Positions 19,594 to 50,162 of a DNA stretch of 64,000 bases are shown one piece after another. Position 1 is the first letter of the stretch. Every line of letters begins with the position of its first letter. Below the pieces are notes generated by a model that made no database searches, was not told the origin of the DNA, and saw nothing but the letters and a program-made list of their open reading frames with translations. Location: positions 30,773-94,772 of the forward strand of contig CAZNDH010000001.1 of NCBI GenBank assembly GCA_964571765.1. The letters are read 5' to 3'. The stretch comes from an uncultured Acidimicrobiaceae bacterium (GTDB lineage Bacteria; Actinomycetota; Acidimicrobiia; Spongiisociales; ZC4RG35). The position numbers and the translations under genes were made by a program.

Positions 19594-19666
19594 CAGTCCC
19601 GACGGGATTCGAACCCGCGTTTCCGGCTTGAAAGGCCGGCGTCCTAGACCACTGGACGACGGGACC
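19594..19666 (-). tRNA. tRNA-Glu(TTC), CCA not encoded
   Basis: GGTCCCG/CGGGACT acceptor stem, CCGGC-CTTTCAA-GCCGG anticodon arm, GGTTCGAATCC T-loop; directly downstream of gltX. Confidence 0.96.
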
Positions 19667-22395: not shown

Positions 22396-23310
22396 CTAGA
22401 CGAACGAGAGCCAGTGGCGGTAGTCATCGAGCTTGCCGGCGACCGCCTCCCGAAACAGCTCCTGAACCTTGCGGGTGATAGGACCGGGAGTGCCGTCGCC
22501 CACTGGGCGGCGGTCGATCTCCCGCACCGGGGAGACCTCGGCCGCGGTTCCGGTGAGGAACACCTCGTCGGCGGCGTACAGGCTCCCTCGGACGAGATCG
22601 CCCTCCTTGACCTCGATCCCCTCGTCGCCGAGCAGCTCGATCACCGAGTTGCGGGTTATGCCCTCGAGGATCCCGCACGACACCGACGGGGTATGAACCG
22701 TGCCCCCGCTCACCAGGAACAGGTTCATCCCGCTTCCCTCAGACAGAGAGCCACTGTCGTTGAGGAGGATGGCCTCGTCGACCCCGGCGTCGAGGGCCTC
22801 GGCCTTGGCCAGCATCGAGTTGAGATAACCCCCCGAGCCCTTGGCGGTGGGGATCAACGATGTGTGCGAGATCCGCCGCCAGCTGGAGATGATGGTGGTG
22901 ATCCCCTTTTGGGCTGCCTCGTCACCGTGGTAGCTACCCAGGGGGAAGGCGGCCATCATCGTCTGCACCTCGTTGTCGAAGGGGTAGAGGCCGATGGTGC
23001 CCATCCCGTAGAAGACCTGAGGACGGATGTAGGCCGACTCCAGCCCGGTCACCCGGAGAAGCTCGAGGCAGGCTTGGGACATCTCGTCCGGGGTCCACTT
23101 CATCGGGATCCGGTAAGAGCGCGCCGAGATCTCGAGACGCACCATGTGCTCCCTCAGCCTGAATACCGCGGTGCCCTCGGGGGTCTGATAGGCGCGAATG
23201 CCCTCGAACACACCTGTGCCGTACTGAAGCCCGTGGCTGAGGAAATGCACGGTTCCCTGATCCCACGGGATCAGCTCACCGTCATTCCAGATGTGGGATG
23301 CGGTATCCAT
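22396..23310 (-). CDS. ilvE: branched-chain amino acid aminotransferase
   Basis: YGTGVFEGIRAY, EGSGMNLF, LEGITR, FLTGTAAEV. Confidence 0.93.
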   Translation of the reverse strand: MDTASHIWNDGELIPWDQGTVHFLSHGLQYGTGVFEGIRAYQTPEGTAVFRLREHMVRLEISARSYRIPMKWTPDEMSQACLELLRVTGLESAYIRPQVFYGMGTIGLYPFDNEVQTMMAAFPLGSYHGDEAAQKGITTIISSWRRISHTSLIPTAKGSGGYLNSMLAKAEALDAGVDEAILLNDSGSLSEGSGMNLFLVSGGTVHTPSVSCGILEGITRNSVIELLGDEGIEVKEGDLVRGSLYAADEVFLTGTAAEVSPVREIDRRPVGDGTPGPITRKVQELFREAVAGKLDDYRHWLSFV

Positions 23311-38281: not shown

Positions 38282-38886
38282 CGGGTGACCTCCCCCACTC
38301 TTGACCCGATCGGAGCCACCTCCATGGCCAGAAAGTTGTCGAGCAGACGACTGCCCTCGGGTGTGAGCACCGACTCCGGGTGGAACTGCACTCCCTCGAT
38401 GGGGAGCTCACGGTGGCGAACCCCCATCACCTCGCCGTCCCAAGTGGTGGCGGTCACCTCGAGTGTTTGGGGAAGCTGGTCCACCGCCAGTGAGTGGTAT
38501 CGCCCGGCGAGGAAGGGCTGGGGCATGCCCTGGTAAACACTCCGAGAGTCGTGGTGGACCTCGGACGCCTTGCCATGCATCAAGGACCGCGCCGACCCGA
38601 CAACACCACCGAACACCGCGGCGATGGCCTGGTGACCCAGGCACACACCGAGAATGGGGACCCGGCCCGCCGCCGCCGAGATGATCCCCATAGACGCTCC
38701 GGCGTGCTCCGGGCGCCCCGGACCGGGCGAGACCACCAGGTGGGTGGGCTCGAGCAGGTCGAGGTCGGCCACCTCGACCTGGTCGCTGTAGCGGACAGTG
38801 ACCTCGGCCCCCAGGGTGAGGAACGCCTGGACCAGGTTGTAGGTGAAGGAGTCGTAGTTGTCGACCATCAGAAGGTGGGCCCTCAC
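38278..38886 (-). CDS. trpG: anthranilate synthase component II
   Basis: DNYDSFTYNL, SPGPG, GVCLGHQ, QFHPES. Confidence 0.95.
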   Translation of the reverse strand: MRAHLLMVDNYDSFTYNLVQAFLTLGAEVTVRYSDQVEVADLDLLEPTHLVVSPGPGRPEHAGASMGIISAAAGRVPILGVCLGHQAIAAVFGGVVGSARSLMHGKASEVHHDSRSVYQGMPQPFLAGRYHSLAVDQLPQTLEVTATTWDGEVMGVRHRELPIEGVQFHPESVLTPEGSRLLDNFLAMEVAPIGSRVGEVTR

Positions 38887-40217
38887 AGTCCCTCCTCGGC
38901 CAGGACGAGGGCGGCGGCCATGGCGGCTCCCTTGGAGAGGACCTCGTGGTGCTCCCGCTCCGGGCTGGAGTCGGCCACGATGCCGGCGCCCGCCTGATAG
39001 GTGTAGCTGTCTCCCTCGAAGACGATGGTGCGGATGGTGATGGCATGGTCCATCGAGCCTTCACGCCCGAAGTACCCCACGGTGCCCGAGTAGAGACCCC
39101 GGGGAGCCGGCTCGAGCTGGTCGATGAGCTCGATGGCAGCCAGCTTGGGGGCGCCGACCACTGTGCCCGCAGGGAAGGTGGCGGCGAACAGGTCGAAGGC
39201 GTCGAGCCCGGGACGAATGTGGCCGTTGACCCCGCTCACCATGTGCATCACATGGCTGTATCGCTCGATGCTCCGATACGGGTCTACCTTGACCGAGCCG
39301 GCCACCGCTACCCGGCCCAGGTCGTTACGGGCCAGATCGACCAGCATGACGTGCTCGGCGGCCTCCTTGGGGTCGGCGAGCAGCTCCTCTTCCAGACGGT
39401 GATCCTCCTCGGTGTCGGCGCCCCGGGGCCGGGTGCCGGCGATCGGCCACAGTTGGGCTTCATCCCCGTTCAACCGGACCAGGGCCTCCGGCGAGGAACC
39501 GACCATTTGTTGCTCCCCGAAGTCGAGGAAGTACATGTACGGAGACGGATTGAGGAGGCGTAGGGCCCGGTACACCTGGAAGGGGTGGAGGTCGTGACGA
39601 CCGGAGAAGCCGATGGAGAGCACCAGCTGGTAGACGTCACCGGCGGCGATACTCCCCCGTGCCAGCTCCACCTTGGCAAGGAAGTCCGGCCGGCTGATGG
39701 TGGGCTGGGGAGGTTGATGGGATCCCGCTGCAGGCCCGGGGGGCAAAGGCCCGGCGAGGAGGGAGACCACCTCACCACGCAGTGCCGGTCGCGATCTCTC
39801 GTCACCATGGAGCAGGGCAATGCGTCTGGTGAGATGGTCGAACACCAGGACCGAACCGGCCGCCATGTAGGAGGCGACCGGCCGGTCCACCACACGGGGA
39901 GACGGGAGCCGATGGAATGAGCGCACCAGGTCGAACCCGGCCACACCCACCAGCCCACCGGAGAATCGCCCGGTTCCCAGGGACGGGTGAAGGGTCGGCA
40001 CCGCGACGAGCCCCTCGCGGAGTCGGGAAAGCACCGCCTCGGTGGGACCGGCCTCCAGGTCGAGGCGGGTCGTATCCCCAAAGCCGATGAACGAGTACCT
40101 CCCCAGGTTGCCTCCCTCCACCGACTCCAACAGGTACCGGGGACCGAGCGGGGCCAGCTTGAGGTAGGCCGACACCGGTGTATGCAGGTCGGCTGCTATG
40201 TCGAATGGTGGGTGCAT
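38883..40217 (-). CDS. trpE: anthranilate synthase component I
   Basis: TPVSAY, LLES, NPSPYM, EHVMLVDLARND, FPAGTVVGAPK. Confidence 0.94.
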   Translation of the reverse strand: MHPPFDIAADLHTPVSAYLKLAPLGPRYLLESVEGGNLGRYSFIGFGDTTRLDLEAGPTEAVLSRLREGLVAVPTLHPSLGTGRFSGGLVGVAGFDLVRSFHRLPSPRVVDRPVASYMAAGSVLVFDHLTRRIALLHGDERSRPALRGEVVSLLAGPLPPGPAAGSHQPPQPTISRPDFLAKVELARGSIAAGDVYQLVLSIGFSGRHDLHPFQVYRALRLLNPSPYMYFLDFGEQQMVGSSPEALVRLNGDEAQLWPIAGTRPRGADTEEDHRLEEELLADPKEAAEHVMLVDLARNDLGRVAVAGSVKVDPYRSIERYSHVMHMVSGVNGHIRPGLDAFDLFAATFPAGTVVGAPKLAAIELIDQLEPAPRGLYSGTVGYFGREGSMDHAITIRTIVFEGDSYTYQAGAGIVADSSPEREHHEVLSKGAAMAAALVLAEEGL

Positions 40218-40257
40218 CGCTCCCGTTCGGTCCGGGGATCGGGAGATGTGCCCTTCC

Positions 40258-40292
40258 AAGAAGAAACCCACCTCACGATCCGAGGTGGGCTT
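40258..40292 (-). terminator. trp attenuator terminator (3:4 hairpin)
   Basis: Minus strand AAGCCCACCTC-GGATCGT-GAGGTGGGTTT followed by CTTCTT. Confidence 0.85.
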
Positions 40293-40320
40293 GGTTCAGA
40301 CGAACTGCTGGGCACCACCT

Positions 40321-40368
40321 CTAGGAGGTGTGCCACCAGCCGGTTGCCAGGTGCAGACTCTGACTCAT
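40321..40368 (-). CDS. trpL: trp operon leader peptide MSQSLHLATGWWHTS
   Basis: Tandem TGG TGG, GWWxTS end like known TrpL peptides, overlaps attenuator segment 1. Confidence 0.9.
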   Translation of the reverse strand: MSQSLHLATGWWHTS

Positions 40369-40376
40369 TGCCGGGG

Positions 40377-40405
40377 AATGTAAGCCGACGGGGCGTGATC
40401 GTCAA
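40377..40405 (-). promoter_or_regulatory. sigma70-type promoter of trpL
   Basis: TTGACG-N17-TACATT, 8 nt before the trpL ATG. Confidence 0.75.
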
Positions 40406-40423
40406 GACCAACCATCAACTGTC

Positions 40424-40452
40424 TTGCCGGGTAGCTACCCGGTTGCTAGCTT
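40424..40452 (+). promoter_or_regulatory. sigma70-type promoter of hisL
   Basis: TTGCCG-N17-TAGCTT with extended TG; contains the 16-bp palindrome CCGGGTAGCTACCCGG. Confidence 0.65.
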
Positions 40453-40461
40453 GATCGCCCC

Positions 40462-40518
40462 ATGAACTGTTCGTTCGCCCATGCCGGCCACCATCACCAC
40501 CCGCTCCGGGTCGGTTGA
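40462..40518 (+). CDS. hisL: his operon leader peptide MNCSFAHAGHHHHPLRVG
   Basis: 5 His codons, 4 of them consecutive, upstream of a terminator and hisG. Confidence 0.88.
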   Translation: MNCSFAHAGHHHHPLRVG

Positions 40519-40580
40519 CAGTGCCCAGCTGAGCTAACGCACACTCCGTCAGCCGACCCAGGTGGTCGGCTTTCTCATTG
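40508..40580 (+). terminator. his attenuator (antiterminator and terminator)
   Basis: Terminator AGCCGACC-CAGGT-GGTCGGCT followed by TTCTCATT; competing 12-bp pairing GGGTCGGTTGAC (40508-40519) with GTCAGCCGACCC (40548-40559). Confidence 0.85.
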
Positions 40581-40620
40581 TTGGGGCCGCCCACCCCGGG
40601 TCCTGAGACCAAGGCCCACA

Positions 40621-41499
40621 ATGACATCACTCACCGAAAACACCGACATCCTCCACCTCGCGGTGCCCAAGGGCCGGATCGAGTCGGGAGTGGTCGACCT
40701 GCTCGCCGCGGCGGGCATACGGCTCCGCTCCGGTCCGCGCGGCTATCGGCCGATCAGCTCGGCCCCGGGTCTGGAAGTGAAGCTGCTCAAGCCCCAGAAC
40801 ATCGTGGAGATGCTCGCCGTCGGCTCCCGCGACGTCGGGTTCGCCGGAGCCGACTGGGTGGCGGAGAAGACGGCGGACGTGGTCGAACTGCTCGACACCG
40901 GTCTCGACCCGGTCCGGGTGGTGGCCGCCGCCCCAGAGGGCCTGCTCGACGGGGGGTCACTCCCCCCACGGCGGCTGGTGGTGGCCTCCGAGCTGGAGAG
41001 GCTGTCTCGATCGTGGGTATCCGACCGCGGGCTGGACGCCACCTTCGTCCGCAGCTACGGGGCCACCGAGGTCTTCCCTCCCGAGGACGCCGACATCATC
41101 GTCGACATCATGGATACCGGGGAGACCCTGTCGGCCAACGGCTTGGTAGTGGTCGATGAGCTGATGACCTCCTCCACCCGGCTGTACGCCAGCCGCAAGG
41201 CGATCGAAGACCCGAGGAAGAAGGCGGCGATCGACGGGCTCGCCCTGAGCCTCCGATCCGTGCTCGAGGCCCGAGGGAGGGCGATGGTCGAGCTCAATGT
41301 GTCCGCTGACGACCTCGAGGGCGTCATCGAGATCCTCCCCTCTATGCGGGAGCCTACGATCGCCACCCTCCACGGCGGCTCCGGCCTGGCCGTCAAGGCG
41401 GCGGTCCCCCGTGCCGAGCTGCCTTCGCTGATCCCCCGGCTGAAGGAGAGGGGCGCCACCGATATCGCCGTCTCACGCTTGGAGCAGATCGTCCCATGA
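40621..41499 (+). CDS. hisG: ATP phosphoribosyltransferase, long form
   Basis: LAVPKGR, GATE, DIIVD..DTGETL..NGL, C-terminal regulatory domain. Confidence 0.94.
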   Translation: MTSLTENTDILHLAVPKGRIESGVVDLLAAAGIRLRSGPRGYRPISSAPGLEVKLLKPQNIVEMLAVGSRDVGFAGADWVAEKTADVVELLDTGLDPVRVVAAAPEGLLDGGSLPPRRLVVASELERLSRSWVSDRGLDATFVRSYGATEVFPPEDADIIVDIMDTGETLSANGLVVVDELMTSSTRLYASRKAIEDPRKKAAIDGLALSLRSVLEARGRAMVELNVSADDLEGVIEILPSMREPTIATLHGGSGLAVKAAVPRAELPSLIPRLKERGATDIAVSRLEQIVP

Positions 41500-43169
41500 G
41501 CCGACCCGACACGTATCGGCCTCCGGTCTTCACCGCGCCCATCGACCTCGACCTGTCACGCAACGAAGGGAGGCCGGGGCCGGCGGCGCGATCCGCCCTG
41601 GCCGGGGACCTCGAGGGCAGAGTGGGTCGCTACCCGGACACCACCAAGCTGCGTGAGGGATTGGCGGCCCGCTTCAGCGTCGACGAAAGCCGGGTGCTTG
41701 TGACCGCCGGTGGTGACGACGCCCTCTTCCGCTGCTTCCTCTCCCGACGGGGCGGGGCGGTGGTATCCACCAGCCCCACCTTCGAGATGATCCCCCGCTA
41801 CGCCGCCCAAACCCGCATGACCCTCGGCGAGGTCGAGTGGTGGGAGGGCCAACTCCCGGTGGAGGACCTCATCGCCGCCGGTGGCCCCGACGACATGGTG
41901 GTGATCGTCTCGCCCAACAACCCGACTGGGGCGGTGATCACCTCCGACGACCTGGCCAGGCTCGCCAAGCGGTTCGCCCTGGTGGTGTGGGACGCCGCCT
42001 ACTCCGAGTTCGCCGACGAGGACCTGACGCCCGCCGCCCTGGACCTGGGCAACCTGGTCATGGTGCGAACCATGTCGAAGGCCTACGGCCTCGCCGGTCT
42101 CCGGGTGGGCTGCCTGGTGGGGAGCGCAGCGAACATCGAGGCGATCGGGTCGTACGGGAACCCCTATCCTCTTTCGGCGGTATCCGCGGAAGTGGCGAGG
42201 CGGGCCCTCGACGACCCCGGGCCGACGGCGCGGTTCGTCGACCGGGTCCGGGTCGAGCGCGCCGAGTTGACCGGTCTCCTCCCCGGGCTGGGTGCCCGTC
42301 CCCTTGCCTCCCAGGCCAACTTCGTGCTCGCTCGGTTCCCCGACGCCGACTGGGTCACCGCGGTGGCAGCCTCCTTGGGTGTCGGCCTTAGGACATTCCC
42401 GAGGAGGGCCGGCCTGGATGACTGTGTCCGTATCACCCTTCCGGGGGACGAGACCGACTTTCGCCGGCTGGTCACCACCCTGGCTGTAGCCACCCGGCCC
42501 GAGGCGGTCATCTTCGACCTCGACGGGGTCCTCGCCGACGTCTCCGGCTCCTATCGGGCAGCGATCATCGAGACCGCGGCCAGCTTCGGGGTCGAGGTCA
42601 CCCCGGCGATGATCGGCGAGGCCAAAGCGGAGGGGAACGCCAACGACGACTGGGACCTCACCCGCCGGCTGTGTCGGGCCGCCGGGGCCGACGTGCCTCT
42701 GCAGATGGTCAAGGACCGGTTCGAGCAGGTCTACCAGGGCAACGAATCGGCTCCGGGTCTCAAGGATCGCGAGCGACTCCTCGTCGACCGTAATCACCTG
42801 GCGGCTCTGGCGAGCCGCCTTCCCCTGGCTGTGGTGACCGGAAGGCCCCGCGCCGACGCCGACACCTTCCTCGATCGCTTCGGCCTGGACAACCTGCTCG
42901 GTGTGGTGATCACCCGGGAAGATGCTCCGATGAAGCCCGACCCGGGCCCGGTGACCACCGCGCTGGCCGCGCTCGGTGTCGATCGAGCGTGGATGCTTGG
43001 TGACACCCGTGACGACCTGGAGGCGGCCCGGGCCGCCGGTGTGGTGCCGATCGGGGTGATCGCCCCGGGGGACGATCCGGCTCAGGCCCGGGCCACCCTG
43101 GCGACGGCGGCTGCGGTGCTCGACAACGCCGGGGAGATCATGGAGGTGCTCGATGCCCAGGAAGTCTGA
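41496..43169 (+). CDS. hisC: histidinol-phosphate aminotransferase fused to a HAD phosphatase (putative histidinol-phosphatase)
   Basis: SPNNPTG, DAAY, RTMSKAYGLAGLRVG; then FDLDGVLADVS, VVTGRP, KPDP, LGDTRDD. Confidence 0.9.
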   Translation: MSRPDTYRPPVFTAPIDLDLSRNEGRPGPAARSALAGDLEGRVGRYPDTTKLREGLAARFSVDESRVLVTAGGDDALFRCFLSRRGGAVVSTSPTFEMIPRYAAQTRMTLGEVEWWEGQLPVEDLIAAGGPDDMVVIVSPNNPTGAVITSDDLARLAKRFALVVWDAAYSEFADEDLTPAALDLGNLVMVRTMSKAYGLAGLRVGCLVGSAANIEAIGSYGNPYPLSAVSAEVARRALDDPGPTARFVDRVRVERAELTGLLPGLGARPLASQANFVLARFPDADWVTAVAASLGVGLRTFPRRAGLDDCVRITLPGDETDFRRLVTTLAVATRPEAVIFDLDGVLADVSGSYRAAIIETAASFGVEVTPAMIGEAKAEGNANDDWDLTRRLCRAAGADVPLQMVKDRFEQVYQGNESAPGLKDRERLLVDRNHLAALASRLPLAVVTGRPRADADTFLDRFGLDNLLGVVITREDAPMKPDPGPVTTALAALGVDRAWMLGDTRDDLEAARAAGVVPIGVIAPGDDPAQARATLATAAAVLDNAGEIMEVLDAQEV

Positions 43170-43737
43170 GATCGCCCGGGAGACCGGCGAGACCAGCGTG
43201 GAGGTTGCCCTGGACCTCGATGGCGAGGGCAGGAGCGAAGTGGCCACCGGGATCGGATTCCTCGACCACATGATCTCCTCCCTAGCCCGCCACTCCCGAA
43301 TCGACATCAGGCTCATGGCTCAGGGAGACCTGGTGGTCGATGACCACCACACCGCCGAGGACTGTGCCATCACCCTGGGGCGTGCCCTCGACCAGGCGCT
43401 GGGCGATCGATCGGGGATCCACCGCTTCGGCTACGCCTACGCACCCCTCGACGAGGCAATGTGCCGAGCCGTGATCGACTTGTCGGGGCGCCCATGGCCC
43501 GAGATCCACATCGACTTTCGTCGAGAAACGGTAGGCGAGTTGGCCACCGAGAACCTGGTCCACTTTCTGCGCAGCCTCGCTGTCGAGGGCCGTCTGGCCC
43601 TCCATGTCGACCTGATCCGGGGAGACAACGACCACCATAAGGCAGAGGCCGCCTTCAAGGCAGTAGCCCAGGCGCTGCGTCAAGCCGTCGCCCTCGACGG
43701 TGACGGAATCCCCAGCACGAAGGGATCCCTGGGATGA
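43153..43737 (+). CDS. hisB: imidazoleglycerol-phosphate dehydratase
   Basis: RETGET, GFLDHM, DDHHTAED, NDHHKAEA. Confidence 0.95.
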   Translation: MPRKSEIARETGETSVEVALDLDGEGRSEVATGIGFLDHMISSLARHSRIDIRLMAQGDLVVDDHHTAEDCAITLGRALDQALGDRSGIHRFGYAYAPLDEAMCRAVIDLSGRPWPEIHIDFRRETVGELATENLVHFLRSLAVEGRLALHVDLIRGDNDHHKAEAAFKAVAQALRQAVALDGDGIPSTKGSLG

Positions 43738-44339
43738 GCTCTCCTCTCGCCCTGGTACCCACCGGCACAGCAAACACCGCGTCGGTGGTGGCCGCCTTCG
43801 GCCGGCTGGGTATCGACGCGGATGTGACCGGCGATCCCCAGATGATCGGGTCGGCGCAACGAGTGGTGCTCCCCGGTGTGGGCAGCTTCGGCGCCGCCGG
43901 TGACACCCTGGCCAAGGCGGGGCTGATCGCTGCATTGAGACAGAGGGTCGACGAGGGCCGGGCAACCCTGGCGGTCTGTGTGGGCATGCAGCTCCTCGCC
44001 GAGGAGAGCGAGGAGAGCCCCGGGGCCCCCGGCCTCGGGGTGGTCCCAGCCAGGATCACCAGGTTCTCCGGGCCGGTGAGGGTGCCTCAGCTGGGGTGGA
44101 ACCGGGTGCAGTCATCGCCGGCCTCCCGCCTTGTCCGCCCAGGTTGGGCTTACTTCGCCAACTCCTACCGGCTCGAGGAGCCACCCCCAGGCTGGGAGAG
44201 CGCGATCTGTGACCACGGGGGACCATTCGTCGCTGCCATGGAGCGGGGTGGAGTGCTCGCCTGCCAGTTCCATCCCGAGCTGTCGGGACAATGGGGACTC
44301 GACCTACTAGGTCGGTGGCTCGAGGGAGGTGGCTGGTGA
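43734..44339 (+). CDS. hisH: imidazole glycerol phosphate synthase, glutaminase subunit
   Basis: LPGVGSF, VCVGMQ, PQLGWN, QFHPE. Confidence 0.93.
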   Translation: MSSPLALVPTGTANTASVVAAFGRLGIDADVTGDPQMIGSAQRVVLPGVGSFGAAGDTLAKAGLIAALRQRVDEGRATLAVCVGMQLLAEESEESPGAPGLGVVPARITRFSGPVRVPQLGWNRVQSSPASRLVRPGWAYFANSYRLEEPPPGWESAICDHGGPFVAAMERGGVLACQFHPELSGQWGLDLLGRWLEGGGW

Positions 44340-45091
44340 GCCTGGCGGTCCGGGTGGTGCCCTGTCTCGACATCGACCGGGGAAGGGTGGTCAAGGGGGT
44401 CCGTTTCGCCGGGCTCCGCGACGCCGGCGACCCGGTGGCCTGCGCCACTGCCTACCAGGAGCAAGGAGCCGACGAGGTGGTCCTCCTCGACGTGTCGGCC
44501 ACTCCAGAAGCCCGGGACCACAATCTGGTAACGGTGGAGGAAGTGCGCCAGTCGCTGGCGATCCCGCTCACCGTGGGTGGAGGTGTTCGCTCGGTCGAAG
44601 ACGCTTCCCGCCTGCTCGAGGCCGGCGCCGACAAGGTCGGCGTCAACACCGCGGCGGTGGCCGATCCCGGGCTGATCACCGAGCTCGCCCTGATATTCGG
44701 CGCCCAGTGCACCGTCCTCGCCGTCGACGCTGCAGCCAGTGATGGAGGCTGGAAGGTGGTAGTGAGGAGCGGCTCGGTACACACCGGGCTCGACGTGGTC
44801 GACTGGTGCCGCCGGGGGGAGGCCCTGGGGGCAGGGGAGATCCTCCTCACCAGCTGGGACCGCGACGGGACAGGGGAGGGATACGACCTCTCTCTCCTCG
44901 AGAAGGTCTGTGGGGCTGTTGGCCTTCCGGTGATCGCCTCCGGTGGCGCCAGAGGCTGGCCTCACATGGTCGACGCGGTGGCCGCCGGGGCCTCGGCGGT
45001 CCTGGTTGCCTCGATCCTCCACGACGGGGAGACCACGGTCAGCGCCCTGAAAGAGGGTCTGGCCTCGGCTGGAGTGGCGGTCCGGCCATGA
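44336..45091 (+). CDS. hisF: imidazole glycerol phosphate synthase, cyclase subunit
   Basis: PCLD, VVKG, GAGEILLTSWDRDGT; GTGA overlap with hisH. Confidence 0.95.
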   Translation: MSLAVRVVPCLDIDRGRVVKGVRFAGLRDAGDPVACATAYQEQGADEVVLLDVSATPEARDHNLVTVEEVRQSLAIPLTVGGGVRSVEDASRLLEAGADKVGVNTAAVADPGLITELALIFGAQCTVLAVDAAASDGGWKVVVRSGSVHTGLDVVDWCRRGEALGAGEILLTSWDRDGTGEGYDLSLLEKVCGAVGLPVIASGGARGWPHMVDAVAAGASAVLVASILHDGETTVSALKEGLASAGVAVRP

Positions 45092-46350
45092 TCGTCCCCT
45101 CGATCGACATAGTCGCCGGCCAGGCTGTTCAGCTGGTGGGAGGGGAGGAGGAGGTGGTGGAGGCCGGTGATCCCCGGCCTCTGATGCAACGCTTCTCCCG
45201 GATGGGCGAGGTGGCCGTGGTGGACATCGACGCCGCCCGTGGCGAGGGGGACAACGGTGAAATGATCGCCGCGCTGTGCGCCATGGGGCGGGTCAGGGTG
45301 GGAGGCGGTGTGAGGAACCTGGACAAGGCACGATGGTGGCTCGACGCCGGCGCCGAGAAGGTGGTCATAGGCACTGCGGCCAGGGCGGGATTCCTCTCCG
45401 AGCTACCGCCGGAACGGGTGGTGGTCGCCCTCGATGCCCGTCGAGGTGAGGTGGTCACCCACGGATGGCGAACCTCGACCGGGTTCGGGCTCCTCGAGTC
45501 GATCACCGAGCTCCGTGGCTCGTGCGGAGGCTTCCTGGTGACTTTCGTGGAACGCGAAGGGCGGCTGGCGGGGACCGACATGGACATGGCGCGTCGAGTG
45601 GTCGAGGCGGCCGGGAAAGCCAGCGTCACCATCGCCGGGGGGGTGACCACCCCGGAAGAAGTCGCCGCCCTCGACGCCATCGGCGCCGATGCCCAGGTGG
45701 GGATGGCCCTCTATACCGGGGCCATGGAGCTGGTCGACGCCTTCGCTGCACCACTGCGCAGCGACCGTGGCGACGGGCTGTGGGCCACGGTGGTCACCGA
45801 CCGGTCGGGTAAGGCCCTGGGGCTCGCTTGGTCCGACCGGGAGAGCCTCGCCGAGGTGATCGACACCGGGCGGGGCGTCTACCACAGCAGGTCAAGGGGC
45901 CTCTGGGTCAAAGGCGAGACCTCGGGCAACACCCAGGACGTGGTGGCGGTGGACATCGATTGTGACCGTGACGCCATCCGGGTCACCGTCGACCAGCAGG
46001 GCCCCGGCTTCTGCCATCGGGGCACCCAGAGCTGCTGGGGTGAGGACCGAGGATTGACCCGGCTGGGCCGGCGTCTCGACGAGATCGTGGCAACGAGACC
46101 CGAGGGGTCCAACACCGCCCTACTGGCGTCCGATGCCGAGCTGCTCGGGGCCAAGCTGGTCGAGGAGGCGGGGGAGCTGGCCGCTGCCCACGACGCCAGG
46201 GAGGTCACCGAGGAGGCGGCCGACCTCCTCTACTTCCTGCTCACCCGTCTAGCAGTCGCCGGGGTCGGCCTGGAGCAGGTGGAGGCAGTGCTCGACGCTC
46301 GGGAGAAGCGGATCACCAGGAGACCGATGCAGACCAGGGGATCCCGGTGA
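45088..46350 (+). CDS. HisA-HisI-HisE fusion
   Basis: MIVPSID..GQAVQL, VGGGVR, VIGTAA (HisA); SRSR.LWVKGETSG, DCDRD, CH..TQSC (HisI); KLVEEAGE, EAADLLY (HisE). Confidence 0.88.
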   Translation: MIVPSIDIVAGQAVQLVGGEEEVVEAGDPRPLMQRFSRMGEVAVVDIDAARGEGDNGEMIAALCAMGRVRVGGGVRNLDKARWWLDAGAEKVVIGTAARAGFLSELPPERVVVALDARRGEVVTHGWRTSTGFGLLESITELRGSCGGFLVTFVEREGRLAGTDMDMARRVVEAAGKASVTIAGGVTTPEEVAALDAIGADAQVGMALYTGAMELVDAFAAPLRSDRGDGLWATVVTDRSGKALGLAWSDRESLAEVIDTGRGVYHSRSRGLWVKGETSGNTQDVVAVDIDCDRDAIRVTVDQQGPGFCHRGTQSCWGEDRGLTRLGRRLDEIVATRPEGSNTALLASDAELLGAKLVEEAGELAAAHDAREVTEEAADLLYFLLTRLAVAGVGLEQVEAVLDAREKRITRRPMQTRGSR

Positions 46351-47600
46351 GTCTGCTCAGGCGGGTGGGCCCGGGCGACCCGGTGCTCGAGGTGCGTCGC
46401 AGACCGGTTGAGCCGGACACCTTGGCCGCGGCTGCCTGCATCGTCGAGGAGGTGCGGGCCGGCGGTGAAGTGGCGCTCCGCAGCCTGGCCAGCCGACTCG
46501 ACGAGCTGGCCGACCATGATCCGCTGGTCATCGGGCGCGACGAGCTCGAGGATGCCTTCCACCGGCTCCCAAGGGGTCAGCGCGACCTTCTCGAGAGGGT
46601 GGCGGCCCGGATAGCCGCTTTCGCCCGTGCCCAACTCACCGGACTCTCCGACCTGGAGACCGAGGTGCCCGGGGGTCGGGCGGGGCACCGGTGGCTCCCG
46701 GTGTCGACGGTGGGCGCCTATGCCCCCGGTGGCCGCAATCCGCTCCCTTCGTCGGTGCTGATGACCGTGGTCCCGGCACGGGTCGCCGGTGTCGACGAGG
46801 TTTGGGTTTCCTCACCTCGTCCCACCCGGGTCAGCCTGGGAGCGGCGTGGGTCGCCGGCGCAGACGGCTTGCTCCCGGTGGGCGGGGCGCATGCCATAGC
46901 CTCTCTGGCCTTCGGAACGGTGACACCGGCGGTCGACCTGGTCGTCGGTCCGGGGAACCAATGGGTGACCGCGGCCAAGAAGCACCTGTTCGGGGAGGTC
47001 GGTATCGATGGGTTGGCCGGCCCCAGCGAGATCGCGGTGCTGGCCGATGGCGAGGCCGACCCCTCCCTGGTCGCCGCAGACCTTCTCGCTCAGGCGGAGC
47101 ACGATCCCGATGCGTTCCCCGTCCTGGTCACCGACAGCGCTCTCCTGGCGGATCAGGTCGAGGTGGAGCTCCGCCGGATGCTCGCCGACCTGCCCACCGC
47201 CAAGGTGGCCACCGCCGCTCTCAGCGGTGGGCTGTCGGTGGTGGTGGGTGACATCAGCGAGATGCTCTCGGTGGTGAACCGCCTCGCTCCCGAGCACGTC
47301 GCCCTCCACACATCCGACCCCGACGTCGTTCTCGAGGGAATCACCTCCTACGGCTCGGTCTTCCTCGGGCCGGGCAGCACCGAGGCCTTCGCCGACTACG
47401 GGGCGGGACCCAACCACGTCCTCCCCACCGGCGGCGGAGCCCGGTTCCAGTCGGGGTTATCGGTGCTCACCTTCCTCCGTTCCCCCACCTGGCTCCGCCT
47501 CGACCGGCCCACCGACCTGGTGGCCGACACCGCCCTGCTCGCCCGGCTCGAAGGGCTCGAAGCCCACGCCCGGGCCGCCGAGGCACGACTCGAGAGCTGA
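46347..47600 (+). CDS. hisD: histidinol dehydrogenase
   Basis: YAPGG, GPGN, AGPSE, QAEHD, APEH, DYGAGPNHVLPT. Confidence 0.95.
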   Translation: MSLLRRVGPGDPVLEVRRRPVEPDTLAAAACIVEEVRAGGEVALRSLASRLDELADHDPLVIGRDELEDAFHRLPRGQRDLLERVAARIAAFARAQLTGLSDLETEVPGGRAGHRWLPVSTVGAYAPGGRNPLPSSVLMTVVPARVAGVDEVWVSSPRPTRVSLGAAWVAGADGLLPVGGAHAIASLAFGTVTPAVDLVVGPGNQWVTAAKKHLFGEVGIDGLAGPSEIAVLADGEADPSLVAADLLAQAEHDPDAFPVLVTDSALLADQVEVELRRMLADLPTAKVATAALSGGLSVVVGDISEMLSVVNRLAPEHVALHTSDPDVVLEGITSYGSVFLGPGSTEAFADYGAGPNHVLPTGGGARFQSGLSVLTFLRSPTWLRLDRPTDLVADTALLARLEGLEAHARAAEARLES

Positions 47601-50026: not shown

Positions 50027-50162
50027 TGAAGAGCCCGAGGAAGTGGGAACGGGTGCTGGGTGACTTCCCAGCTGAGACAGGGACTGTAGGAGTCCCCGGA
50101 CCGTTCAAACCTGAGACGGTTAACACCGGCGTAGGAATCCCCTTCGTTGGGCTCTTCATTTT
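50027..50162 (+). ncRNA. TPP riboswitch aptamer with extended P1
   Basis: GGGTGC-P3-GCTGAGA, extra stem, ACCTGA..CGGTTAACACCGGCGTAGGA; closed by TGAAGAGCCC/GGGCTCTTCA then TTTT. Confidence 0.82.

Follow-up and report, generated by a model that had tools for sequence, protein, structure and literature searches.

A candidate histidine leader-peptide attenuator upstream of the his operon in Acidimicrobiia, with relatives in other phyla

In a 64,000-nucleotide stretch of DNA from an uncultured Acidimicrobiaceae bacterium (the window hereafter), a short histidine-rich upstream open reading frame (uORF) and a terminator-like hairpin lie immediately before hisG. We consider it highly probable, judging from sequence comparison, that this element is a classical ribosome-mediated transcription attenuator, which would sense charged tRNA-His and control a seven-gene his operon. 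The sequence elements, their conservation and their mutually exclusive pairings were observed directly, and from them we infer translation of the uORF, the site of transcription start and the response to histidine. The mechanism is a known one and not new. The comparisons below delineate a conserved RNA family outside Rfam, present in one order of the Acidimicrobiia and with clear relatives in other phyla.

The leader ORF, which resembles hisL, was read from the sequence at 40462-40518 on the plus strand. It comprises 18 codons from the ATG at 40462 to the TGA at 40516-40518 and encodes MNCSFAHAGHHHHPLRVG, so that the earlier note's description of a His-rich uORF directly upstream of hisG was borne out to the base. 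The ATG at 40462 is the sole possible start, since the frame is closed by a TAG four codons upstream and none of the codons between can serve as a start. Five of the 18 codons encode histidine, four of them consecutively; these four, CAC CAT CAC CAC at 40489-40500, are the putative regulatory codons, and the fifth is found at 40480-40482. Directly 3' of the leader ORF and its terminator comes hisG. Homologous uORFs with three to six consecutive His codons are present at all readable orthologous loci. Across 51 related leaders the His run is the invariant part of the peptide (most relatives carry five), its codons alternating between CAC and CAT; the RNA-constrained C-terminus is kept as well, and the N-terminal residues vary.

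Upstream of this ORF we identified a putative -35 box TTGCCG (40424-40429, plus strand) and a putative -10 box TAGCTT (40447-40452, plus strand) ending 9 nt before the leader ATG. Both were read from the sequence, and a strict consensus promoter scan of 39900-40900 did not pick up the TTGCCG box. Among the related leaders, 50 of 51 have a TANNNT hexamer 8-11 nt (mode 10) ahead of the leader's start codon, and 43 of 51 have a TTG-type box 16-18 nt upstream of the -10 box. A Shine-Dalgarno-like sequence precedes the leader ATG in three of the 51 leaders and is absent from the window's leader. Based on this promoter geometry and the absent Shine-Dalgarno sequence, the mRNA probably starts 0-4 nt before the leader ATG, which would make the leader ORF leaderless or nearly so.

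Downstream of the ORF, an intrinsic terminator is predicted at 40551-40582 on the plus strand. Its stem (40551-40558 with 40564-40571) has 8 bp, of which 6 are G-C, closes a loop of 5 nt (CAGGT) and is followed by the U-rich tail TTCTCATTGT; stem and tail together lie 40 nt before hisG. A terminator scan of 39900-40900 returned this one site only (40551-40571), shuffled sequences averaging 0.5 such sites. In the 51 relatives 99.5% of the cells in this stem are paired, with two compensatory pairs. No plus-strand gene upstream of the leader would need a terminator, the neighbouring trpE being divergent.

Whether this hairpin terminates transcription by itself bears on an alternative, to which we give a small chance: that the uORF and hairpins respond to histidine through Rho-dependent polarity, mRNA stability or hisG translation. 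The window's U-tail is indeed interrupted (UUUCUCAUUGUU), and the fold pairs the tail region with the start region of hisG (CAUUG with CAAUG), a complementarity that recurs in the same-genus locus L002. Against this stand the hairpin and T-rich tail themselves, which are kept in 51 of 51 leaders and called terminator-like by an independent scan. The hairpin moreover lies at least 40 nt before the hisG ribosome-binding region, and by eye the tail-to-start pairing is absent in more distant relatives. Intrinsic termination at this hairpin remains our preferred reading.

The left arm of the terminator has a second potential partner. GGGTCGGTTGAC (40508-40519) is complementary to GTCAGCCGACCC (40548-40559) over 12 bp, 11 of them Watson-Crick and one G-U, and this pairing is part of the minimum free energy (MFE) fold. 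The earlier note had proposed precisely such a 12-bp duplex between the end of the uORF and the terminator arm, which is upheld here, including in the relatives: the eight-pair core of this antiterminator is 93.6% paired across the 51 leaders, against 12-49% when the partner is slid. The core is nearly invariant and its covariation weak, and 28 of 500 shuffles reach its percentage paired.

The antiterminator has a competitor of its own. RNAalifold on 11 orthologous leaders gave two hairpins, one formed by the His codons and the Pro codon with GGGUCGGYUGAUGGUG, the other being the terminator. In the window itself, the corresponding 5' part pairs 40483-40503 with 40507-40529 at -22.5 kcal/mol. 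Taken together with the pair counts on the 51 sequences, the consensus and the window fold define segment 1 (40488-40502, plus strand) as the His codons and Pro codon pairing with segment 2. Segment 2 (40508-40524, plus strand) consists of the last three codons, the stop codon and 6 nt beyond; its core, 40508-40519, pairs with segment 3, and the whole of it pairs with segment 1. Segment 3 (40548-40559, plus strand) is at once the right arm of the antiterminator and the left arm of the terminator, as the folds indicate and as a central base covarying with both partners supports. Since the His codons also pair with segment 2 in a conserved hairpin, the simple three-segment switch suggested in the earlier note gives way to a classical four-segment attenuator (1:2, 2:3, 3:4) as the model that the folds describe.

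We examined the conservation of these pairings in a test alignment of 51 sequences, from which L042 (partial) and L048, L062 and L071 (duplicates) were left out. The 1:2 plus 3:4 structure is 95.8% paired, with eight pairs changing on both sides (33 cells), figures that are inflated because the alignment was fitted to this structure. None of 500 shuffles matched the structure on any of five measures, and slid controls gave 18-45%. The wobble base of a His codon covaries with a base beyond the stop codon (U-A in 17, C-G in 16 and U-G in 14 leaders). At the central base of segments 2, 3 and 4, the 51 leaders read U/A/U in 43, U/G/U in three, C/A/U in three, U/G/C in one and C/G/C in one. Among leaders from other phyla, the central base is C/G/C in four of the ten that fit the pattern, and the terminator is in another register in eight of 18. 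Such joint variation of one base with each of its two competing partners is expected of an attenuator.

One further pairing is peculiar to the window. The codons before the His run (40483-40492, GCCGGCCACC) show a 10-bp complementarity to the right arm of the terminator (40561-40570, GGTGGTCGGC), which occurs in one of the 51 leaders, namely the window's. It nests around the antiterminator, so that the MFE of the window's free RNA at equilibrium is antiterminated. We regard this pairing as chance or fine-tuning.

To follow the competition during transcription, we folded each of the 51 leaders as an RNA ending with segment 3, the stage of decision, and blocked the bases from -15 to +13 around the A-site codon. 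With the ribosome placed at the stop codon, the antiterminator core formed in none of the 51 leaders. It formed in 48 when the ribosome occupied the run's first His codon and in 50 when it occupied the middle one. On the last His codon, the ribosome would itself cover the first bases of segment 2, and here the antiterminator formed in three of 51 with the +13 footprint and in 33 of 51 with a +11 footprint. For RNA of the same length bearing no ribosome, the 1:2 hairpin was in the MFE fold of 20 of 51 leaders and the antiterminator in that of four. In these models, therefore, a ribosome at the stop codon blocks the antiterminator, whereas one at the first or middle His codons permits it.

Folding of the full leader gave a different picture. 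Free of ribosomes, it contained the terminator in the MFE fold in 50 of 51 leaders, the window being the sole exception. With segment 4 present at equilibrium and the ribosome at the first, middle or last His codon, the antiterminator was in the MFE fold of 16, five and none of the 51 leaders, respectively. Equilibrium folding was thus rejected as a test of the switch, for it did not reproduce antitermination once segment 4 was present. Because such folds seldom yield the antiterminator, the switch would have to be kinetic, like that of the textbook attenuator.

Together, these features suggest the following course of events. Transcription would start on the leader ATG or only a few bases from it, and a ribosome would translate the 18-codon leader while RNA polymerase proceeds. 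When histidine is plentiful, the ribosome would reach the UGA inside segment 2 and cover that segment; segments 3 and 4 would then pair, and the hairpin with its U-tail would halt transcription near 40575-40582, some 40 nt short of hisG. Under scarcity of His-tRNA, the ribosome would stall on the early or middle His codons, covering segment 1 and leaving segment 2 free to capture the nascent segment 3; no terminator would form, and the polymerase would read into hisG. In the case of no ribosome, segments 1 and 2 would pair and the terminator would form.

Relief of termination could also be brought about in trans, by uncharged tRNA-His acting in a T-box-like manner, by a small molecule binding a riboswitch or by a histidine-binding protein, in which case the His codons would be incidental. 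The phylum offers a precedent for leader-peptide-free RNA control of his genes, since those of Corynebacterium are under T-box control according to the portion of PMC9413887 available. We nevertheless judge such a trans-acting factor highly unlikely here. Neither a T-box nor any other Rfam family matched the element, at E up to 10 in 39800-41000 or at the gathering score in the window. The element measures only about 120 nt, most of which is ORF and terminator. In addition, the 51 sequences and the leaders of other phyla retain the frame, its start, the position of its stop and the run of His codons, and an untranslated element would not need such conservation. The leader-peptide attenuator that we favour is likewise distinct from the family already catalogued for this function: Rfam His_leader (RF00514) gave no match at E up to 10 in 39800-41000 or at the gathering score in the window, nor did any of 18 related loci (16 belonging to other phyla) match it at E up to 1. 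The earlier note had named a match to a known family, together with a host outside the Actinobacteria, as an outcome that would refute its reading.

Taken singly, the window sequence is suggestive, and only that, because the fold z-score of its leader by itself is weak (-1.79) and because runs of four CAY codons occur elsewhere in long frames. The corresponding pattern, CAYCAYCAYCAY, has six occurrences in the window against 0.15 expected. The remaining runs (12639, 22889, 27328 and 50959/50962) were rejected as leaders: all lie inside long open frames, that at 22889 within ORFs of at least 300 codons. What decides that the element is more than chance is, on sequence comparison, its conservation at 55 of 55 orthologous loci, described in the following.

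In 61 related genomes, 12 carry a hisG 62-100% identical to the window's, the rest having either a hisG of only about 30% identity or no hisG. The same kind of leader, for example MNQSFAHAIHHHHPSRVG, MSRRFAEFHHHHHPDRVG or MYSSNCHLHHHHAQEGWLEV, is found at all 11 readable loci of the close type, the twelfth (L007) being cut at a contig end. Seventeen loci of the 30% hisG type were compared, with L022 left out; a loose pattern flagged three small ORFs there (54, 51 and 8 codons), none with the leader architecture. One of the 30%-type loci, L028, has an 8-codon ORF, MSHHGHHK, about 264-291 nt upstream of hisG, which may be chance.

A scan of named genomes added 80 loci, 44 of which have a HisG 65-79% identical to the window's. 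The titles of these 44 name Acidimicrobiia, Acidimicrobiaceae, Actinomycetota or Actinomycetes in 35 cases, Acidobacteriota in eight and Armatimonadetes in one, consistent with the actinobacterial host that the earlier note had guessed from the letters. The His uORF is present in 43 of the 44, and the remaining locus is cut inside the uORF. A covariance model, R1, built from the first 11 orthologous leaders scores 69-117 bits at 55 of 55 loci with the close hisG type (62-87% identical), the training set included. Leader, terminator and competing pairings thus recur in all 55 of these relatives, which are mostly titled Acidimicrobiia. Scanning the regions upstream of hisG in Acidimicrobiia, as the earlier note had recommended, hence finds the leader at every close-type locus.

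Nine records titled Acidobacteriota or Armatimonadetes (L035, L036, L039, L041, L044, L046, L050, L056 and L069) carry an Acidimicrobiia-type HisG (71-78% identical) together with the leader. Six of the nine are represented in the HisG tree described below (L035, L036, L039, L041, L069 and one clade-mate set), and all of these fall inside the Acidimicrobiia clade. The titles may be mislabels, or the loci may be recent transfers.

The range of the element within the class and the phylum is narrow. When 151 genomes sampled evenly from the class were searched, R1 was positive in 12, with one match per genome, and all 12 belong to the window's own order (12 of 37 genomes). The 114 sampled genomes of other orders yielded no element with R1, and the eight sampled genomes with the 30% hisG type yielded no R1 match. 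The window's own genome has one strong R1 match. A possible second copy there (L112, E 0.048) was rejected as a leader, since it lacks a His uORF and sits at a gene junction. Across 151 genomes of the phylum, strong R1 matches were obtained only in the window's genome (G000) and a family member (G036). Eleven further phylum genomes gave weak matches of 22-32 bits at 12 places; the four best of these were examined and rejected, being plain terminators at gene ends with no His uORF.

The histidine pathway itself is patchy in the window's lineage. Within the family, hisD is present in 29 of 41 genomes and absent in 12, a count that includes the unpublished G196, and eight of 11 same-genus genomes (81-97% complete) gave no hisG match with the window's query. 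The remaining genomes have either the leader-controlled operon or the other hisG type, about 30% identical, beside hisD and with no leader.

Other phyla account for the remaining 36 of the 80 named loci, whose HisG is 62-68% identical to the window's. At least 20 of the 36 have a His-rich uORF, an R1 match or both upstream of hisG, R1 giving 15 matches at E up to 0.001 and four weaker ones; L102 was counted by its uORF only, and L104 and L093 have interspersed His codons. These leader peptides end in AG or VG directly before the stop codon. Their segment 2 is GGCCGGGUGAUGG, in which UGAUGG is complementary to the His codons, and their terminator reads GCCGGCC / GGCCGGC. A TTG box precedes the ATG by 36-39 nt in 18 of 18 leaders from other phyla. 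The same design, in which the -35 box precedes the ATG by 36-39 nt, the last residue of the peptide is G, UGAUGG is complementary to the His codons and the terminator reads GCCGRCC / GGYCGGC, is seen in Acidimicrobiia, Planctomycetota, Myxococcota, Acidobacteriota, Methylomirabilota, Krumholzibacteriota and others.

To place these loci relative to one another, we used a HisG tree obtained by a quick LG+G4 search on 85 rows; L007, which is truncated, was omitted, as were 15 type-A loci that nearly duplicate others and nine of the 18 with the 30% hisG. Of the 40 Acidimicrobiia-type rows, 39 form one clade (support 91) nested among other phyla. Its sister is a Planctomycetaceae row whose leader is of the Acidimicrobiia-like version (96*). 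One row, L012, is placed outside the clade on a long branch, and the 30% hisG type sits on a very long one. The earlier note's idea of putative donor groups finds support in this sense: several other phyla have a related leader and hisG type, and it is among these that the Acidimicrobiia copies branch as a single clade. The tree is compatible with a single acquisition of operon and leader in the order. A bolder reading, which we offer tentatively and regard as somewhat less probable than its opposite, is that attenuator and operon constitute one portable unit, a horizontally transferred pathway carrying its own host-independent sensor, acquired once in the window's order, where it would now alternate with another hisG type that lacks regulation and with genomes that have lost the pathway entirely. 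Such a unit, we propose, could dispense with a host-specific Shine-Dalgarno sequence, as translation of its uORF would begin right at the 5' end of the mRNA.

Behind the leader, seven genes from hisG to hisD (40621-47600) lie on one strand, overlapping or abutting. The first, hisG (40621-41499, plus strand), encodes a long-form ATP phosphoribosyltransferase with a C-terminal regulatory domain (Pfam HisG and HisG_C; NCBIfam TIGR00070 and TIGR03455). Domain matches identify the others, all on the plus strand, as hisC fused to an HAD phosphatase (41496-43169), hisB (43153-43737), hisH (43734-44339), hisF (44291-45091), hisA fused to hisIE (about 45088-46350) and hisD (46347-47600). The operon encodes the whole histidine pathway, and the HAD-family phosphatase fused to hisC is possibly a histidinol-phosphate phosphatase. 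In the loci from other phyla hisC also comes next after hisG, and in many of those phyla the alignment extends into the HAD domain, which indicates that the hisC-HAD fusion is common to them as well.

Upstream of the his leader, on the opposite strand, lies trpE-trpG-trpD. The same intergenic region holds what appears to be a second, divergent attenuator (40258-40405, minus strand) just before trpE. Its promoter reads TTGACG-17-TACATT (40405-40377, minus strand), followed 8 nt later by the leader ORF MSQSLHLATGWWHTS (40368-40321, minus strand), which ends at a stop codon, and by a terminator with a stem at 40289-40267 and a U-tail on the minus strand. Rfam Trp_leader was hit here below threshold only (19.7 bits, E 0.42), and the same-genus locus L002 has a comparable leader with a WW pair. 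The ATGs of the trp and his leaders stand back to back, 93 nt apart. The longest trpE ORF (38883-40271, minus strand) would begin at a GTG at 40271 and overlap the trp terminator; a likelier start is the ATG at 40217, which GGGAG precedes by six bases. The whole-window Rfam scan additionally returned a TPP riboswitch at 50039-50154 on the plus strand (59.9 bits, above gathering) and a tRNA gene at 19594-19666 on the minus strand.

The presence of two divergent promoters in this intergenic region would also suit a hairpin acting as a constitutive insulator or terminator between them, with the ORF untranslated or encoding a functional His-rich peptide; peptides of this kind are generally known to bind metals. 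The probability of this explanation is very low in our estimation. Outside the His run, the conserved residues (RVG and the stop) are those encoded by the bases that pair with the terminator arm, and the N-terminus drifts. The element always lies directly upstream of hisG and occurs once per genome, and were the terminator constitutive, histidine synthesis as a whole would be switched off. Conditional termination governed by translation of the His codons is the reading that we retain.

Histidine attenuation is a founding example of RNA-based gene control, documented almost only in gamma-proteobacteria, with candidates in some Firmicutes. The published record for Actinobacteria reads differently. 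Actinobacteria studied in 2005 had no conserved RNA structure upstream of their histidine operons, going by the section of PMC1262725 available, and his attenuators are assigned to Proteobacteria (RF00514) and T-boxes to Firmicutes and Actinobacteria in the portion of PMC9413887 at hand. In PMC4833913, gamma-proteobacteria, some Firmicutes and Lactococcus lysQ are the only cases given of His-dependent attenuators. Our literature search found no report of a his attenuator in Actinobacteria, and a 2015 conference paper on His-containing leader peptides in Actinobacteria (ref 18 in PMC4833913) may report something similar. The earlier note's statement that actinobacterial attenuators are described mainly for trp, leu/ilv and cys agrees with the literature, within the available parts of PMC9413887 and PMC1262725. 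The search likewise found nothing combining 'histidine', 'leader peptide' and 'Acidimicrobiia', and nothing on such leaders in Planctomycetes or Myxococcota.

Against this background, the element represents a structurally supported His attenuator family in an actinobacterial class where the literature, as far as the accessible text goes, reports T-boxes or no RNA control for his genes, with related versions in at least six other phyla, none of them covered by Rfam. Beyond the textbook lie its probable leaderless start, its spread across phyla with a compact operon and its divergent pairing with a trp attenuator. The alignment could seed a new RNA family and improve the annotation of small genes and regulatory sites in many uncultured soil and water bacteria, and the leader would lend itself naturally to testing how leader-peptide attenuation works when the mRNA is leaderless.

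Among known systems, the E. coli trp leader (trpL, RF00513) shares with the his element the 1:2, 2:3 and 3:4 pairings and the regulatory codons in segment 1. Its layout is that of the textbook four-segment attenuator, with the stop codon close to or in segment 2. The window's his leader differs from trpL in sensing another amino acid and in its sequence. The enterobacterial his leader (hisL, RF00514) has a more elaborate hairpin set and seven consecutive His codons. Unlike it, the window's leader has no RF00514 match and no Shine-Dalgarno sequence, its promoter abuts the ATG, and its host belongs to the Actinomycetota. Common to both are a short ORF with consecutive His codons upstream of hisG and a terminator competing with an antiterminator, the position of the ribosome deciding between them, as hisL is described in the available text of PMC9413887.

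A further comparison is with candidate his attenuators proposed by comparative genomics in three groups of Firmicutes, the Bacillus cereus group, Peptostreptococcaceae and Erysipelotrichales (PMC9413887, accessible part). By their description there, they resemble the window's leader in having three to five consecutive His codons, a terminator and an antiterminator, and no RF00514 match. They belong to another phylum and to another operon context, which in bacilli is that of hisZ or hisS. PMC2965389 separately reports a His leader ahead of paralogues of hisS and hisZ in bacilli. Within the window's own phylum, actinobacterial trp, leu/ilv and cys attenuators follow the same principle, although none of them senses histidine, and poly-Cys leaderless uORFs of mycobacteria start at the mRNA 5' end (10.1101/834739 and PMC1262725, portions available). 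For histidine itself, Corynebacterium glutamicum has a His-specific T-box upstream of his genes, according to the same part of PMC9413887. That T-box binds uncharged tRNA directly and has no leader peptide, unlike the element described here; what the two would share is control of his genes at the RNA level in Actinomycetota through sensing of tRNA-His charging.
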